31,533 nucleotides of DNA from NCBI GenBank assembly GCA_040256005.1, contig JBDZWC010000015.1, positions 2,950 to 34,482 on the forward strand. Reading direction: 5' to 3'. The number at the start of each line of letters is the position of its first letter. The first letter of the stretch is position 1. The position numbers and the translations under genes were made by a program. The stretch comes from Deinococcaceae bacterium. GTDB taxonomy: Bacteria > Deinococcota > Deinococci > Deinococcales > Trueperaceae. This document shows positions 14,084 through 31,427 of the stretch, piece by piece. The notes below the pieces were generated by a model. That model was not told the origin of the DNA. It worked only from the letters and a program-made list of their open reading frames with translations, and ran no database searches.

Positions 14084-14578
14084 CTACGACGGCTGGTACG
14101 CGCGTCGCTGTCTCCGCCTGTCGATGTCCTCCCTGACCTTCTCACCGGTCGCCCAGTGACGCTTCTCGAGCTCCGTCTCCACGCGCAGCCTCGGCACCGG
14201 GGTGGGCTTGCCGTCCTCGGCCAGCGCCACGAAGTTCAGGTGGCCGATCGTGCACAGCCTTCGCTCGCCGGTCAGCGGGTTCTCGCCGTGGACCTCGCAT
14301 CTGACGATCATGCTGGTGCGGCCGGTCCAGGCGACGCGGCTCTTGACCTCCACGATCTCGCCGACGTGGATGGGAGCGCGGAAGTCGATGGGCTCGGTGG
14401 AAGCGGTCACGACGACCTTCCGGCAGAAGCGGGCGCAGGCGACGGCGGCGTTCACGTCCATCAGTTGCAGCAGCCGCCCGCCGAACACCGATCCGACGGG
14501 GTTGGTCTGGTTCGGGAAGATGGTGTCGACGGTGACGACCCAGTCGGACACCCGCGGTTCGTCGAGGGGTAGGTCCAC
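14084..14578 (-). CDS. acyl-CoA thioesterase (hotdog, YciA-like)
   Basis: IFPNQTNPVGSVFGG.LL.LMD, VVTAS, IDF.API.VG and GRTSM. GTG 14578 is 6 nt after TATACT. Confidence 0.92.
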   Translation of the reverse strand: MDLPLDEPRVSDWVVTVDTIFPNQTNPVGSVFGGRLLQLMDVNAAVACARFCRKVVVTASTEPIDFRAPIHVGEIVEVKSRVAWTGRTSMIVRCEVHGENPLTGERRLCTIGHLNFVALAEDGKPTPVPRLRVETELEKRHWATGEKVREDIDRRRQRRAYQPS

Positions 14579-14584
14579 GTAGGG

Positions 14585-14616
14585 AGTATAGGAAGAGCCG
14601 CCGAGACCGTTAACAT
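14585..14616. promoter_or_regulatory. back-to-back -10 boxes for the divergent thioesterase (TATACT, minus) and bioY (TAACAT, plus) genes
   Basis: TATACT is 6 nt from GTG 14578; TAACAT (14611-14616) is 7 nt from ATG 14624. Confidence 0.65.
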
Positions 14617-14623
14617 GCGCAGC

Positions 14624-15220
14624 ATGACGCAGAGAACCGCAGCTCTCCTCGACCACATCGCGCCCGTCCGCAGCGCTCCGGTGGTTTTCTCCGCGCTCAG
14701 GGCGGGGCTGTGCGTGGCCGCCGGCGTGCTGCTGCTCGCCGCGCTCTCGCAGCTGCGCGTGCCGATAGGGCCCGTGCCCTTCACGGGCCAGACGCTGGGC
14801 GTGCTGCTCGTGGGTGCCGCCTTCGGCGCGCCGCTCGGGCTGCTGACGGTGGCGGCCTACCTGCTCCTCGGCGCTGTAGGGCTGCCCGTGTTCGCAGGCG
14901 CCGAGTCCGGCGTCACCTACGCTCTGGGGCCCACCGGCGGGTACCTGCTCGGCTTCGCGCTGGCGGCCGCCGCGCTCGGCTACCTGGTGCGGCGCGGCTG
15001 GGACCGGAACGTGCTCACATGCGCCGCAGCGATGCTGCTGGCCAACGCGCTGGTCTACGTGCCAGGCCTCCTCTGGCTACGTACGAGCCTGGGCCTGTCC
15101 TGGCAAGCGACGCTCGCGGCGGGCCTCACCCCGTTCCTCCTCGGAGACCTGATCAAGCTCCTCATCGCCGCCGCCGCGTTGCCCGCTGCCTGGCGGGCGG
15201 TCGGCCGACAGCACGCCTAG
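14624..15220 (+). CDS. bioY: biotin transporter BioY
   Basis: PVPFTGQTLGVLLVG, YLLLGAVGLPVFAG, GPTGGYLLGF and PFL.GDLIK. An alternative start exists at 14615. Confidence 0.93.
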   Translation: MTQRTAALLDHIAPVRSAPVVFSALRAGLCVAAGVLLLAALSQLRVPIGPVPFTGQTLGVLLVGAAFGAPLGLLTVAAYLLLGAVGLPVFAGAESGVTYALGPTGGYLLGFALAAAALGYLVRRGWDRNVLTCAAAMLLANALVYVPGLLWLRTSLGLSWQATLAAGLTPFLLGDLIKLLIAAAALPAAWRAVGRQHA

Positions 15221-15241
15221 CTGAGCCGGAGCGGAAGCCAT

Positions 15242-15281
15242 ACGAGAACTCGCCCCGCGAGCGCTTGCGCTGCGGGGCGAG
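15242..15281 (-). terminator. intrinsic terminator hairpin (may also serve bioY)
   Basis: On the minus strand, CTCGCCCCGC-AGCGCAAGCGCTC-GCGGGGCGAG followed by TTCTCGT. Confidence 0.7.
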
Positions 15282-15416
15282 CCGGTGACCGCCTGGATTG
15301 AGGGGAAACTAGTTTCCGACCTCTAAAACAGGAGGTAGTCCTGAGTTACCCTCGACGGGCACCTCCACTGGTCGTACAGTCACTATTACTGATATGGACC
15401 ACCTCCTTTCCGTGGT
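15242..15416 (-). ncRNA. candidate structured small RNA with extended complementarity to the 16S rRNA 3' end
   Basis: Has its own -10 (TAGAAT), a 12-bp stem that needs a G-U pair on the minus strand (A-C mismatch on plus), internal hairpins and a terminator. About 51% GC over 15301-15430 versus about 70% in the flanks. Confidence 0.6.
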
Positions 15417-15422
15417 GACTGG

Positions 15423-15453
15423 ATTCTAACGCCACGGCGGTGGCCGCTGTCAT
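15423..15453 (-). promoter_or_regulatory. sigma70-type promoter of the candidate sRNA
   Basis: TAGAAT at 15428-15423 and ATGACA at 15453-15448 (19-nt spacer, longer than ideal). Confidence 0.55.
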
Positions 15454-15536
15454 GAACCGGGTCACAGTAGAGTTGGTCAACGCACGTCGAACGCCGTCCA
15501 GGTCGGCTAGGCGACGCCCTCAGGAGGGTTGGCACA

Positions 15537-17630
15537 GTGCTCAGCGTCCCCGAGAAGATCCTCTTCGTGATCCTGGCAGCGGCCTCCGCCTACTTCGCCT
15601 ACCGCGGTTTCGCCAGGGTCGTGAAGGTGATCCGCAGGGGCCAGCCAGGCCCGCTGCCACGGACCAACCAGTTGCTGCGGCGCGCGGTCGAGGGCGTGCT
15701 CAAGACGCTCTCACAGCGCACCGTGTTCCGGGCGCGGCCGGTCGCGAGCACGTTCCACGCCTTCATCTTCTACGGCTTCGTCCTCTACCTGTTCGTCAAC
15801 GTGATCGACGGGCTGAGGGGTTTCCTGCCTACCGGCTGGACCGCCGGTCTCGGCTTCGGCGCCGTGGGCGACGTGTACAGGTTGGTGGCCGACGTCCTGA
15901 CCGTCCTGATCCTCGTGGGGATGGTCTTCTTCCTCGTGCGCCGCTTCGCGGTGCGTCCGACCACGCTGCAGCAGAACGAGCGCACGCTCCTCCACGAGCG
16001 GGTGCAGCAGGGCTCCGTGCGGCGCGACTCGCTGATCGTGGGTGCGTTCATCATCCTGCACGTGGGTTTCCGGTTCACGGCCGAGTCGTTCCTCCTGGCG
16101 GCCGAGGGCCACACCGATCCCTTCCAGCCCTTCGCCTCGACGCTGGCCTCGCTCGTCGGGTTCGGAGAGGGCCGCATGGTCGGATGGCACGTGGGCTGGT
16201 GGGGAGCCCTCGGCCTGATCCTCGCGTTCCTGCCCTACTTCCCGCGGTCCAAGCACATCCACCTGTTCGCGACACCGGCGAAGTTCACGCTCGAGCGCCG
16301 CGAAGAGGACCTGCAGCCGGTGCCCACCGGCGTGCTCGAGCCCGTCGACCTAGAGGACGAGACCGCGGAGCAGTTCGGCGCCGCGCGGCTCGAGCACTTG
16401 AGGTTCCCGCAGCTGCTAGACGCCTACGCGTGCATCCAGTGCAACCGCTGCTCGAACGTCTGCCCCGCGAACCAGACCGGCAAGGCCCTCAGCCCGGCTG
16501 CCCTGGAGATCAACAAGCGTTACGAGCTGAACCTGATCGGCGACGCGTTCGCCGCAGGCGAGGAGAGCCCGCGCCCGCTCGTCGACTTCGCCATCTCGCC
16601 AGAGGCCGTGTGGGCCTGCACGACCTGCGGCGCCTGCATGGAGGTCTGCCCGGTCGGCTGCGAGCAGATGATCGACATCGTCGACATCAGGCGCGACCTG
16701 GTGATGATGCAGGGCGAGTTCCCCGCCGAGCTGCAGAACGCCTTCCGCGGCATGGAGCGCACCGGCAACCCGTGGGGCATCGCTCAGGACAAGCGTATGG
16801 AGTGGGCCGATGGGCTTGCCGTGCCCACCGTGGAGGAGAACCCGGGGTTCGAGGTGCTGTTCTTCGTCGGCTGTGCCGGCTCCTACGACCCAGCGGCCCA
16901 GCGCACCACGAAAGCGATGGTGCGCATCCTCGAGCACGCCAAGGTCAACTACGCGGTGCTCGGCAAGGCCGAGCGCTGCACCGGCGACCCCGCGAGGCGC
17001 GCCGGCAACGAGTACCTCTACTACCAGCTGGCGACCGAGAACGTGGAGACGCTCAACGCCACGCTCATCGGCGAGAACCTGGACGAGAGCAAGAGCAAGC
17101 TCGTGCTGACCACGTGCCCTCACTGCTTCAACGCGCTCGTCAACGACTACCCGCAGCTGGGCGGTCACTACGAGGTGGTGCATCACACGCAGTTGATCGA
17201 GCGGCTGACATCCGAGGGTCGCCTGCCGCCGCTGGCCGAGTCCCGCAGCGTCACGTTCCACGACCCCTGCTACCTGGGCCGGCACAACGGCGAGTACGAC
17301 GCGCCGCGCGCGGTCCTCAGCGGGGGCGGCACGAACCTGCTCGAGATGGAGAAGAGCCGCAACGACTCCTTCTGCTGCGGCGCCGGTGGCGCGCAGTTCT
17401 GGAAGGAGGAGGAGCCCGGTGACAGGCGGGTCTCGGAGGAGCGCTTCGCGCAGGCGGTGGAGACCGGCGCCGAGGTCGTCGCCACGGGCTGCCCGTTCTG
17501 CAAGGTCATGCTCGGCTCGAGCGAGGGATCGCAGGCCGAAGGGGCCCCCGAGGTGCTGGACGTCGCCCAGCTCGTCGCCGCCCGGCTGGACGGCATCCAG
17601 TCGCTTCTGGACTCCGTCGCCAGCGACTAG
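15537..17630 (+). CDS. membrane-anchored Fe-S oxidoreductase (FadF / heterodisulfide-reductase-like)
   Basis: N-terminal TM region, two 4Fe-4S motifs (CIQCNRCSNVCP, CTTCGACMEVCP) and two CCG domains (CTGD..CPHC; HDPCYLGR, CCGAGG, CPFC). GTG follows AGGAGG. Confidence 0.9.
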   Translation: MLSVPEKILFVILAAASAYFAYRGFARVVKVIRRGQPGPLPRTNQLLRRAVEGVLKTLSQRTVFRARPVASTFHAFIFYGFVLYLFVNVIDGLRGFLPTGWTAGLGFGAVGDVYRLVADVLTVLILVGMVFFLVRRFAVRPTTLQQNERTLLHERVQQGSVRRDSLIVGAFIILHVGFRFTAESFLLAAEGHTDPFQPFASTLASLVGFGEGRMVGWHVGWWGALGLILAFLPYFPRSKHIHLFATPAKFTLERREEDLQPVPTGVLEPVDLEDETAEQFGAARLEHLRFPQLLDAYACIQCNRCSNVCPANQTGKALSPAALEINKRYELNLIGDAFAAGEESPRPLVDFAISPEAVWACTTCGACMEVCPVGCEQMIDIVDIRRDLVMMQGEFPAELQNAFRGMERTGNPWGIAQDKRMEWADGLAVPTVEENPGFEVLFFVGCAGSYDPAAQRTTKAMVRILEHAKVNYAVLGKAERCTGDPARRAGNEYLYYQLATENVETLNATLIGENLDESKSKLVLTTCPHCFNALVNDYPQLGGHYEVVHHTQLIERLTSEGRLPPLAESRSVTFHDPCYLGRHNGEYDAPRAVLSGGGTNLLEMEKSRNDSFCCGAGGAQFWKEEEPGDRRVSEERFAQAVETGAEVVATGCPFCKVMLGSSEGSQAEGAPEVLDVAQLVAARLDGIQSLLDSVASD

Positions 17631-22846: not shown

Positions 22847-24445
<1,599 letters not shown>

Positions 24446-28358: not shown

Positions 28359-31300
28359 TCACTTCCCCCGCGGCGCGAGCATCGCCACCGGGGTCCTGAT
28401 CAGGATCTCGATGTCCCACCACACCGACCAGTTGCGGACGTAGTTCGCCTCCATGGACTGGCGCTCCTCGAAGGTGGCCTCGTTGCGCTCCTCCACCTGC
28501 CAGTAGCCCGTGATGCCGGGCCTGGCGAGGAAGATGATGTCGCGCTCCTCGTTCATGTCCCGCAGCTCGGAGACCAGGTAGGGGCGCGGACCCACCAGGC
28601 TCATCTGGCCCATGAGGACGTTGAAGAGCTGTGGCAGCTCGTCCAGCGACAGCCTCCTAAGGACCCTGCCGACGCGCGTCACCCGTGGGTCGTCGGTGAG
28701 CTTGCGGAACCGCAGGTACTCCTCCCGGGCCTGCGGGTCCTCCGCCATCAGCCTCTCAAGCCGTTCCTCCGCGTCCGCGAACATCGTCCTGAACTTCAGG
28801 CAGTCGAACGGCTTGCCGCCTCTGCCCACCCGCGGGGAGCGGTGCACCGGCGCGCCGGGCGAGTCGAGGCGCACGAGAAGCGCGATGAGCGCGAGGGGGA
28901 CGGCGAGGAGCACGAGCAGCACGGCCGACAGGAAGACGTCCATCGTCCGCTTGATGAAGCGGTTCGTCGGCGACGCCAGCTCGTTGCGCACCTCCAGGGC
29001 CAGCGAGGTGCCGAGCGGGGTCGCCGAGACCGAGCTGGTGGGCAGCCCACCGACGTCGGGCAGGTACTGCACGTACCGCAGCTGCCGGTCGGCGCGCCTG
29101 AGGACCTCGTCGAACTCCAGCACGCGGGCGGCTTCCGGGGTGACGACCGCGTGCCTGACGTTGTTGTCGGCGATGTAGCGCCAGGCGTGCTCGAGGTCGC
29201 CCGTGATGGGGGGGTTCTGGAGGTCCCAGGAGCCCGCTCCGAACGCGGCCACAGGGTGCAGACCGAGGCCGCGGTGGGTCGCGAGGTGCTTGGTGGTCCG
29301 CGCCGCCGCGGGGCCCGTGCCGAGCACGACGACAGCCCTGCCCCACAGGTGGAGGCCCCGCAGGACGAGCTTCACGAGCTCGCGCACGGTCGGTGCCAGC
29401 ACGACGCTGGCGACGAGGGTCACCGCCAAGGTGCTGGGCGCGAGCTCCAGCGAGCGCAGCAGGACCGACACGCTGGCGACTAGCAGCGACCCGCCGGTCG
29501 CGACCGTCACGGAGCCCGCGAGCTCCTGGTGGCTGGGGCGCCCGTACGCCGGGTAGTGCCTGGCGAGCAGCCCGACCAACGGCCAGGCGAGCACGGCGTA
29601 CACGAGCCCGGGCGCGAACGCCGCCGAGCCGTTGGCAGCGAGCAGGCCGAGCGCCAGCGCCAGCGCCCCGGCCGCGGCGTCACCGGCCGCCAGCGATAAC
29701 CTCACCGCCAGGCCGCTCAGGACGCCGGTCTCGGCCTCCGCCAGCGTCCTGTGGCCCACAGCCCTCCAGCCGAGCACCGCCGCCAACGGGTAGAGCACCG
29801 CGCCGGACAGCAGCGTGGAGTCGAACGAGTTGAGGACGATGACGCCCAGCAGCACGACCGCCGCTGCCCTGTCCCGCTGCTGCACGGCCCGCAGCGCCAG
29901 CGCCAGGAACAGGAGCACCAGCCCGCCGAACCCGACGACGCCACGCTCCACCCAGGCGGACAGCGCGGCGTTGTGGGCGTGCGAGGCGACGGGGCGCAGC
30001 CGCGGCTGCTCGTCCCCGAGCACCGCTATGGACCGAGGCAGGCCCTGCGGGCCCCAGCCGAGGAGCGGCCGGGCGGCGATCGCGTTCAGCGCGTCGTTCC
30101 AGATCGGGAAACGCGAGGCTCGCAGGGAGGCGACGCCGCGCTCGGCGCGGCCGGGGACGTAGGGCACGGGGGCGTCTGTAGCCGTGAGCTGCAGCCCTGC
30201 GAACGTGGTGCTGACGCCCGTGAGGTTGGAGCGATCCGGGACGACCCCCACGTGCCACACCAGCGGCTGGTCGCCCGTGTACCTGAAGGTCACCTGGGCG
30301 CGGACCAGGTCGTCCTCCAGCTCGAGGGCAGAGCTGCTCATGACCTCCACCGGACCCGTGCCGCGCGCCTCGTGGGCTCCTCTCACCATGGTGGTCCCGA
30401 GGTTCATCTGGACGGTCTGCCCGTCGATGGTCGTCTCGCCCCAGCCGTCGAGGCCGGGCCGGGCGTCGCCCTGCACCCGCAGGACGACGCTCATCGTGTA
30501 CGTCTGCTGGGGCTCCAGCGTCACGATCTGCTGGAGGCGCGACCACGGGTCGGCGGAGCGCTTGGTGACCGTGAACGCGGTACGTTCCACGCCGTCCACG
30601 GCGACCTTGCCGTCGACGAACGTCACGCCGAGGGGGAACCACCAGTCGCCGTCGGCCACCTCTGTGCCCCTGAAGACGTTGGCGTCGGGTTGCGCCGGCT
30701 GGAACGCCGTCAGGAAGCCCGTGCGGCCCACGCCGAGCGGAGCCAGCAGGCCGGACGCCAGCAGGAACATGATGCCGATGAGGACCCACTCGGCGCCGTG
30801 CGTGCCGGGCGTGCCGCGCCGCTTCACGAGCCTCAGGCCCAGCGATACGAGGAGCCAGGCGAACATCGCCTCGCGGGCGCCCGAGAGGATCACGCCGGCG
30901 GCGCCCAAGGCCAGCGCCACGACCCTCAGCCGCGGCGAGGGCACCACGATCGCGAGCAGCGCCGCCAGCACGAGCATCATGTGCCCGAACGTCGCGGGAT
31001 GCGTCTGCCAGGTGATGGCGTCGAGCGGTGTGCGGGCCGTGGCCCACTGGAAGCCGTCGAGCTGCCGCAAGCCGACGAGGAACGCGATCAGCAGGCCGAC
31101 CACCAGGCCGGCGCCGACCGCGTTGCCGACGTCCCTCTGCGCCAGGGAGTGCCTGAGGGCCGTAGACGACCGATAGATGAGCCAGGCGGCGAGGACCTGT
31201 GCCCCTGTGCCGAGCCCCTCGGTCACGTGCCCGGTGACCACGAACGGAGCACTGAGCAGCAGGGCCGCCGCCCACCACAGCCGATCGGCGCGCTGGATCT

Positions 31301-31427
31301 CCAGCCGGTGGTTGAGCCAGGTGAGGAGCGCCAGGAACGGACCCGCCGCCGGGACGGCTGCGAAGCCCACGCCCGCGAGGAAGGCGGCGCCGTTGAGCAG
31401 CCTCGGCCGAGCAGACTCGTGTGCCAC
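28359..31427 (-). CDS. fusion of an O-antigen-ligase (Wzy_C/WaaL-like) domain with a WbaP/WcaJ-type polyprenol phosphoglycosyl transferase
   Basis: N half has SG.R, R..IW..A...I..RPLLGWG and HAHN...E.G.VG. C half has a TM bundle, VVVLGTG, KR.MD, KFRTM, DPRVTRVG..LR..SLDELPQL.NVL.G.MSLVGPRP, PGITG.WQV and YVRNWS.W.D. One uninterrupted 1022-aa ORF; GTG is 6 nt after TAGACT. Confidence 0.88.
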   Translation of the reverse strand: MAHESARPRLLNGAAFLAGVGFAAVPAAGPFLALLTWLNHRLEIQRADRLWWAAALLLSAPFVVTGHVTEGLGTGAQVLAAWLIYRSSTALRHSLAQRDVGNAVGAGLVVGLLIAFLVGLRQLDGFQWATARTPLDAITWQTHPATFGHMMLVLAALLAIVVPSPRLRVVALALGAAGVILSGAREAMFAWLLVSLGLRLVKRRGTPGTHGAEWVLIGIMFLLASGLLAPLGVGRTGFLTAFQPAQPDANVFRGTEVADGDWWFPLGVTFVDGKVAVDGVERTAFTVTKRSADPWSRLQQIVTLEPQQTYTMSVVLRVQGDARPGLDGWGETTIDGQTVQMNLGTTMVRGAHEARGTGPVEVMSSSALELEDDLVRAQVTFRYTGDQPLVWHVGVVPDRSNLTGVSTTFAGLQLTATDAPVPYVPGRAERGVASLRASRFPIWNDALNAIAARPLLGWGPQGLPRSIAVLGDEQPRLRPVASHAHNAALSAWVERGVVGFGGLVLLFLALALRAVQQRDRAAAVVLLGVIVLNSFDSTLLSGAVLYPLAAVLGWRAVGHRTLAEAETGVLSGLAVRLSLAAGDAAAGALALALGLLAANGSAAFAPGLVYAVLAWPLVGLLARHYPAYGRPSHQELAGSVTVATGGSLLVASVSVLLRSLELAPSTLAVTLVASVVLAPTVRELVKLVLRGLHLWGRAVVVLGTGPAAARTTKHLATHRGLGLHPVAAFGAGSWDLQNPPITGDLEHAWRYIADNNVRHAVVTPEAARVLEFDEVLRRADRQLRYVQYLPDVGGLPTSSVSATPLGTSLALEVRNELASPTNRFIKRTMDVFLSAVLLVLLAVPLALIALLVRLDSPGAPVHRSPRVGRGGKPFDCLKFRTMFADAEERLERLMAEDPQAREEYLRFRKLTDDPRVTRVGRVLRRLSLDELPQLFNVLMGQMSLVGPRPYLVSELRDMNEERDIIFLARPGITGYWQVEERNEATFEERQSMEANYVRNWSVWWDIEILIRTPVAMLAPRGK

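Follow-up and report, generated by a model that had tools for sequence, protein, structure and literature searches.

The minus strand between bioY and a membrane Fe–S gene in the window (the whole 31,533-nt stretch of DNA analyzed here, from a Trueperaceae genome of the Deinococcota) carries a real, conserved, apparently free-standing RNA gene of ~170 bases, whose sequence places it very probably in the class of rre-type small mRNAs. Comparison of homologs reveals a −10 box and a terminator-like stem of its own, a 17-nt match to the 3′ tail of 16S rRNA, a small ORF (sORF) that opens with an isoleucine codon (AUH), a second Shine–Dalgarno (SD) element before the stop codon, and a long-range helix. 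The rre class rests on one paper (Hahn et al., RNA Biol, PMC5711450), which reports such genes from Alphaproteobacteria only and calls their function elusive. We file the RNA described here as an rre-like variant, not as rreB or rreR. Its features and neighbors are as follows.

15423–15428, minus strand: −10 promoter box TAGAAT, a TAnnnT box upstream of the conserved ACCAC 5′ end
15243–15416, minus strand: predicted RNA of ~170 to 175 nt, both ends predicted
15395–15411, minus strand: extended SD, complementary to the 16S 3′ tail over 17 nt, two of the pairs being G–U
15346–15393, minus strand: predicted sORF ISNSDCTTSGGARRG, AUC start, 15 codons, UAA stop
15360–15366, minus strand: GGAGGUG, a second SD-like element located 10 nt ahead of the final sense codon
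15354–15363, minus strand: 5′ arm of the predicted long-range helix P2, overlapping the second SD and a small CCC/GGG hairpin (15359–15349)
15325–15341, minus strand: anti-SD segment behind the stop codon, partner of the extended SD in helix P1 of the minimum-energy fold
15300–15323, minus strand: variable stem-loop, from the predicted fold and homolog comparison
15284–15293, minus strand: 3′ arm of P2, directly before the terminator
15243–15283, minus strand: terminator-like G+C-rich stem (15283–15247) with compensatory changes, and a weak U tail
15537–17630, plus strand: divergent neighbor, membrane Fe–S/CCG oxidoreductase (Pfam CCG and Fer4; context only)
14624–15220, plus strand: convergent neighbor bioY (Pfam BioY; start at 14624 predicted from a leaderless-type −10 box; context only)

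A conserved, probably free-standing RNA gene

The initial annotation had proposed a −10 box TAGAAT at 15428–15423 on the minus strand and a transcription start near 15416, spaced as in the leaderless genes of this genome; the box lies at these coordinates, and conservation begins at 15416. A TAnnnT box precedes the conserved ACCAC 5′ end by 6 nt in 65 of 70 loci and by 7 to 8 nt in four, with none in the remaining locus, and the genome-wide distribution of TAnnnT–ATG spacings peaks at 6 to 7 nt, the same spacing as that before the 5′ end of the RNA. The low-GC island described earlier is also borne out, with a G+C fraction of 0.51 at 15300–15399 versus ~0.7 in the surroundings. The terminator, placed by the initial annotation at 15281–15242, stands in part: a G+C-rich stem is present, but its U tail is poor, and a consensus scan returned neither a σ70 promoter nor a terminator with a U-tract; many homologs have clear U tails.

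The element was recovered by DNA search (E ≤ 1e-6) in 107 of 127 family genomes; at E ≤ 0.01 matches rise to 116 of the 127 relatives, nine of them weaker than 1e-6. These tallies, drawn from 128 family genomes, include the unpublished G089, for which no separate claim is made. Nearly all family genomes carry a single copy, and no paralog beyond chance was found in the RNA's own genome. For detailed comparison, we used 70 loci from 31 genera, consisting of the 30 best (this genome included) and 40 picked from the rest. Across 301 sampled genomes of the phylum, a pattern with both SD elements is found in 80 of 102 genomes of the same family and in 6 of 10 genomes belonging to family f5. The start codon is CUG or UUG in the genuine copies from f5 and from three small genera of family f2. 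No genuine copy turned up in the largest genus as sampled (none among five weak matches in 37 genomes) or in families f3 and f4; judging by size, these are probably Deinococcus and the Thermus group. Eight loci inspected among the weak model matches in f2 (its largest genus), f3, and f4 (E 0.003–0.05) proved not to be the element, and a second pattern gave only coding matches there, which means that the element was not found in the genomes searched, not that it is absent.

The Fe–S gene is the divergent partner in 28 of 30 loci and bioY is present in 17 of 30, while the downstream neighbor varies from homolog to homolog. An alternative reading as a leader peptide or attenuator was discarded, with no co-oriented gene downstream, bioY convergent, and the neighbor variable among homologs. 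The plus strand offers an SD-like run at 15325–15341 followed by a 25-codon CTG frame, which is the mirror of the SD/anti-SD helix; this reading is rejected because the −10 box and the U tails of homologs indicate the minus strand.

Four RNA runs from four studies were compared as contigs over 14600–16100, and these contigs give neither strand nor ends. In run X17, an adapter-bounded contig covers 15293–15399 at a depth of 83 with no mismatch; in X11, a contig of depth 28 covers 15281–15472 and extends 56 nt upstream of the predicted start. In these two of the four runs, the flanking genes have no contigs apart from short foreign matches. Run X16 contains a relative's contig (depth 2.4) with 23 differences, all outside the element, and X8 has contigs over the flanks only, the lack of one over the element proving nothing. 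The contigs fit an abundant separate RNA, and could also derive from DNA.

Several further observations concern the surroundings. For two proteins encoded in the window, close relatives carry the NCBI label Trueperaceae. A near-palindromic TGTGA-N-TTCAT box at 15452–15466 (minus strand) lies between the −10 box of the RNA and the Fe–S gene, and 15 of 30 loci have it 48 to 50 nt upstream of the RNA start, among them every one of the 12 loci from the same genus. It resembles a Rex or CRP operator; a Rex-type DNA-binding domain is encoded in the genome, and the box could control the Fe–S gene, the RNA, or both. bioY and a thioesterase gene diverge (14601–14626, plus strand, and 14563–14590, minus strand) and both look leaderless. 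Since a TAnnnT lies 6 to 7 nt ahead of each, they probably start at 14624 and near 14563, respectively, both shorter than the listed ORFs. Finally, a 1022-codon frame at 28359–31427 (minus strand) joins an O-antigen-ligase-like region, a weak spike-fiber-like domain, and a WbaP-type sugar transferase; it could be a genuine fusion or an ORF called too long.

An extended Shine–Dalgarno complementary to the 16S rRNA tail

The minus strand reads GAAAGGAGGTGGTCCA at 15410–15395, as annotated initially, where up to 16 nt of pairing with a single G–U had been predicted from the general bacterial 16S 3′ end. The pairing holds, and this genome's own 16S 3′ end (G000:C194) extends it to 17 contiguous pairs over 15411–15395, with two G–U pairs and −30.0 kcal/mol; the complementarity spans the whole single-stranded tail. 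Throughout the 3.1 Mb genome, at least 16 contiguous in-register pairs to the tail are found only here and on the antisense strand of the 16S gene. A site with 15 contiguous pairs (G000:C192 near 9022, plus strand) lacks the other parts of the element and is probably due to chance.

The 16S-complementary segment, whose conservation in relatives the initial annotation had named as a point to check, is kept in the 70 loci analyzed. At positions 1 to 16, 163 of 165 departures from Watson–Crick pairing with the 16S tail still pair as G–U, which supports the earlier view of a self-contained small RNA that pairs with this tail and indicates that selection maintains the pairing as far as the last nucleotide. 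We consider the RNA probably bound to the 30S subunit, because the 16S pairing is kept in homologs and the analogous rreB cosediments with 30S.

A small ORF with an isoleucine start codon

Behind GGAGG, the window RNA has AUA at 6 nt and AUC at 8 nt, with no AUG, GUG, or UUG at SD spacing. The initial annotation concluded from this that there is no start codon; that conclusion does not survive comparison, which reveals a conserved in-frame AUH that opens a 15-codon frame. Anchoring the reading frame on the conserved block leaves one in-frame position among spacings of 7 to 9 nt, and this position is occupied by ATT in 37, ATC in 19, ATA in 14, and ATG in none of the 70 loci from 31 genera. The spacing is 8 nt in 60 of 70 loci and 7 or 9 nt in the other 10; the frame runs for 12 to 15 codons and ends at one position with TAA (58 loci), TAG (11), or TGA (1). 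In this frame, all 61 distinct spacers are free of stops, whereas 16 and 36 of them contain one in the other two frames; shuffled spacers give a mean of 21.7 with an in-frame stop and a minimum of 10 in 2000 shuffles, and with one spacer per genus, in-frame stops number 0 of 31 versus 11.3 expected. The alternative frame of 28 codons from the AUA at 6 nt was set aside, the frames other than that of the AUC being interrupted in 16 and 36 of the 61 spacers. The comparison thus identifies AUC at 8 nt as the conserved start codon of the window RNA.

The first five to seven codons are free to vary, and the C-terminal TSGGARRG hardly changes across the family. Within this block, there is almost no synonymous change and there are several amino acid changes, so that most changes alter the residue; three glycine codons show no third-base change at all (GGA, GGT, and GGG, each in 70 of 70 loci). 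This pattern indicates that the constraint on the sORF is at the level of RNA, not of peptide.

An isoleucine start codon has a precedent in infC, which uses an AUU or AUA start under feedback by its product IF3, a factor that discriminates against isoleucine start codons. The infC gene of this genome starts with AUA 8 nt behind GGAGG (G000:C90 near 24386–24400), and its start is ATH in all 27 parsable loci among 30 family loci (in two, ATC at 10 nt, assigned by eye). The infC codon is one also used by the small RNA in genera g18, g22, g23, and g33 and is not in g9, g10, and g15, in a comparison without control for kinship. In S. aureus, one study reports that AUU and AUA starts behind extended SDs give ~10% of the output of AUG and that infC starts with AUA (PMC13009471).

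A second Shine–Dalgarno-like element and predicted long-range structure

The predicted fold of the minus strand over 15420–15236 is unusually stable (z = −4.68; none of 200 shuffles as stable). Toward the end of the sORF, the GGAGGT of the second SD is invariant in 59 of 59 aligned rows, with −15.0 kcal/mol for pairing with the 16S tail.

Helix P2, whose 5′ arm overlaps this second SD, is able to form in 70 of 70 loci with a median of −16.75 kcal/mol. In the 59-row alignment, paired cells account for 93.5%, and none of 500 shuffles attains the covariation score, which kinship may inflate, as related sequences can beat shuffles without structure; two-sided change is confined to one of nine counted pairs within the family. 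Over 153 loci from several phyla, each RNA's own 5′ P2 arm pairs with its downstream region at a median of −16.7 kcal/mol versus −13.2 for foreign arms, and in 101 of the 153 fewer than 10% of foreign arms pair as well as the own arm. In the window RNA itself, P2 carries a C–U mismatch and has near-zero predicted probability, and it is not predicted to form there even when the first 41 nt are kept unpaired.

Helix P1, between the extended SD and the anti-SD segment, has −24.4 kcal/mol in the window RNA and is weaker or absent in some homologs. Its covariation is not significant, with 87 of 500 shuffles reaching the score. Most of the SD core is engaged in cis pairing in 52 of 70 loci, and most of it is free in three.

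Occurrence in other phyla and Rfam

The initial annotation recognized no named Rfam family. That stands insofar as the window has no match at gathering thresholds, the element lying below the cut-off of every family, but a full-length subthreshold match exists: RF02471, Ms_IGR-5, aligns over positions 1 to 184 with 24.1 bits against a cut-off of 45 (E 0.002), and the element is the only match to this model in the genome at E ≤ 0.1. The model has no match in T. thermophilus or D. radiodurans, used as named controls. RF01867, CC2171, scores 14.4 bits against the window (E 0.65, cut-off 75); this model has no genome-wide match in this genome and none above cut-off in 21 genomes. One family homolog scores 29 bits over its full length with CC2171, and rreB-type loci score 42 to 52 bits.

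A pattern scan of genome contigs retrieved at least 120 loci from other phyla, which share the order of parts and in which the conserved block is read as Glu-Val, i.e., in a different frame. Of 80 titled loci, 74 are from Actinomycetota; the other six titled loci among the matches listed are from Ignavibacteria, Terriglobales, Polarisedimenticolia, Syntrophobacter, Eisenbacteria, and one unclassified source. The stop lies 15 nt behind GAGGUG in 115 of 120 listed loci, where the pattern allowed +10 to +16. First start candidates among these listed loci are AUH in 4 of 120 and mostly AUG or UUG at 10 to 12 nt. At E ≤ 0.01, a sequence model of the family recovers 25 of 30 cross-phylum loci versus 1 of 33 SD-bearing viral decoys, although the 30 had been chosen by shared motifs, so that the score is no independent proof of homology; it recovers 1 of 9 GUG-start loci, a weak link to rreB. 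The predicted architecture of a super-SD, a weak start, a second SD before the stop, a long-range helix, and a terminator recurs in Actinomycetota and several other phyla.

Viral contigs were scanned as well. A loose pattern gave 117 stretches, the distinct ones listed among them looking like chance or ordinary genes, and a stricter pattern gave no matches. A GUG pattern gave nine matches, at least six of them rre-like, which are probably host DNA beside proviruses. The rreB-type genes L359 and L363 adjoin a tRNA gene on such contigs, probably host DNA at the attachment site of a provirus. A family of phage contigs (L124, L126, L136, L145, L147, L156, and others) has two strong SDs in tandem ahead of a gene, spaced by 17 nt and separated by a short frame.

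Proposed mechanism and alternatives

We lean toward a mechanism in which this stand-alone rre-type mini-mRNA docks on the 30S subunit and rare, IF3-sensitive translation refolds it and turns it over, so that translation, and not the peptide, would be the conserved function. Contact between the 5′ purines and the 16S tail would nucleate the duplex, which would take the place of the cis anti-SD helix at a cost of ~17 kcal/mol for opening and a gain of 30. The over-long duplex, together with an isoleucine start disfavored by IF3, would make initiation slow, and as a consequence most molecules would sit on 30S subunits. Once initiation passes, the ribosome would read the 15 codons and unwind the helices, and a ribosome at the stop codon could re-pair the anti-SD with the second SD. 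The RNA would then be turned over by analogy with the start-codon-dependent decay of rreB, whose half-life rises from 10 min to 37 min when its start codon is changed to stop (PMC5711450). The fold and half-life of the RNA would report the state of initiation, either IF3 or free 30S. IF3 sensing cannot be the general function, because AUH is rare in other phyla (4 of the 120 listed); rather, impaired initiation behind a maximal SD would be the general theme, since other lineages use other weak starts (CUG or UUG in other Deinococcota families, GUG in rreB), and IF3 sensing may be a family-level feature. Against this explanation stand the failure of P2 to be predicted in the window RNA, the nonsignificant covariation of P1 and its weakness in some homologs, the X11 contig reaching 56 nt upstream of the start, the X8 contigs over the flanks only, and the weak link to rreB (1 of 9).

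That the 15-residue product is itself functional, with the odd ribosome-binding site serving only to keep its level low, we regard as unlikely. Conservation of the frame with its start and stop, the nearly invariant TSGGARRG of the family, and the conservation of RreB and RreR within their clades (PMC5711450) would fit it. Yet the first codons vary freely, the fixed part is constrained at the nucleotide and not the amino acid level, and other phyla use a different frame for that nucleotide block; furthermore, the same source describes synthetic RreB and RreR as unstructured and their overproduction as without effect.

The function first proposed for this locus, a noncoding anti-SD decoy that parks 30S subunits in bulk and thereby favors leaderless mRNAs or hibernation, is quite unlikely. 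It accommodates the selection on 16S pairing out to the last nucleotide, the enrichment of leaderless-type TAnnnT–ATG spacing in the genome (a rough heuristic counts 179 of 2170 long ORFs), the apparent abundance of the RNA in two libraries, and the finding that rreB stays ribosome-bound without its start codon (PMC5711450). A decoy, however, has no need for a conserved start and open frame, and the cis pairing of its SD core in most loci (52 of 70) and its lack of a copy in sampled genomes of the phylum's largest genus speak against bulk sequestration. In the same paper, moreover, 20-fold overexpression of rreB is without effect on growth, and the authors note that ribosomes far outnumber rreB.

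Equally hard to credit is a role in quality control, by which the RNA would bind only subunits with a mature free 16S tail, or idle or stalled ones, to mark or rescue them, with the second SD holding the posttermination ribosome. Coverage of the whole single-stranded tail, the stop at a fixed distance behind the second SD (+15 in 115 of 120 listed loci), and presence as one copy in almost every family genome, in the manner of a housekeeping RNA, would suit it; against it, the neighborhood in the window and the compared loci shows no link to ribosome-biogenesis genes, and searches of sampled genomes from several sister families did not find the element. Finally, it is very improbable that the RNA acts as a base-pairing sRNA or cis element on the Fe–S or bioY genes: despite divergent linkage to the Fe–S gene (28 of 30 family loci), it appears to be equipped with a promoter and a terminator of its own, faces away from that gene, has a variable downstream neighbor, and its invariant bases match rRNA, not mRNA.

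Comparison with known systems

Both Rfam models that approach the element are annotated as sRNAs. Ms_IGR-5 is an Actinobacteria sRNA, and one preprint calls IGR-5 of M. smegmatis validated but uncharacterized (bioRxiv 10.1101/2021.12.14.472595); CC2171 is a Caulobacter sRNA, described as Northern-validated in Methylorubrum in another (bioRxiv 10.1101/2022.01.24.477521). CC2171 has the same 5′ extended SD as the window RNA. Ms_IGR-5 shares the SD, the GAGGUG before the stop, and a ...UCACC arm ahead of the terminator, but it is annotated as noncoding, and its actinobacterial copies mostly have AUG or UUG at 10 to 12 nt, read the block as Glu-Val, and carry an extra hairpin in the terminator loop that is absent from Trueperaceae copies. 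In the actinobacterial copies (L239 to L358), this hairpin has a loop with conserved GUCC, and their sORF contains a GGAC with the potential to pair with either GUCC, features likewise lacking in Trueperaceae.

A published account of a copy in Deinococcota or of a cross-phylum link was not found in the literature searched, which took in few subscription journals and excluded bioRxiv supplements. We put forward only tentatively, as a doubtful proposal, that rreB/rreR, CC2171, Ms_IGR-5, and the window element form a single ancient family of ribosome-docking RNAs, spread across phyla, with two SD modules, before a weak start and before the stop, and a closing long-range helix, and that the AUH start has made the Trueperaceae member a free-standing IF3 sensor that mirrors infC and signals in trans through its fold, its decay products, or the retained 30S. 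If the Deinococcota, actinobacterial, and other copies were one family, a ribosome-binding RNA would be spread over many phyla, two Rfam sRNA families would be misread mini-mRNAs, and function could be tested in tractable hosts such as Streptomyces and M. smegmatis.

The likeness to infC lies in the AUH codon 7 to 8 nt behind GGAGG, in this genome and in the family; the SD of infC, however, is ordinary and its product is the regulator, whereas the window RNA has no long downstream frame.

The closest parallels are rreB and rreR. Hahn et al. (PMC5711450) describe rreB as a 165-nt RNA with a 17-nt SD and a 14-codon frame with a GUG start, 30S-bound and weakly translated. As there, the window RNA appears to be a stand-alone RNA of ~165 to 175 nt with 16 to 17 nt of 16S complementarity, an sORF in the range of 14 to 18 codons, a weak start codon, an SD largely paired in cis, and a terminator. 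Where rre genes have at least 16 nt of complementarity upstream of the sORF, it has 17 contiguous pairs with two G–U, and its frame of 15 codons (12 to 15 in the 70 loci) corresponds to their ~14 to 18; for the stand-alone character at ~165 nt, the −10 box and terminator stem are conserved, and the RNA contigs cover the element but give neither strand nor ends. The rreB-type L359 frame ends in GAGGUC-GCCCGC-UAG, close to the actinobacterial form. By eye, the peptide shares no common motif with the rreB-type peptides L359, L360, and L363, RreR not being part of this comparison.

The RNA is not assigned to rreB or rreR proper because its peptide is unlike the rreB-type ones and because a GUG overlapping the last complementary base is replaced by AUH in all 70 loci. 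In the published description, rreB and rreR have a GUG that overlaps the duplex, perfect 16S complementarity, a cis anti-SD inside the frame, and alphaproteobacterial hosts; in contrast, the Deinococcota RNA has an AUH one base past the duplex, two G–U pairs within it, and an anti-SD behind the stop codon. The fixed AUH start provides a sharp handle, in IF3 dependence, that the published rre members lack.
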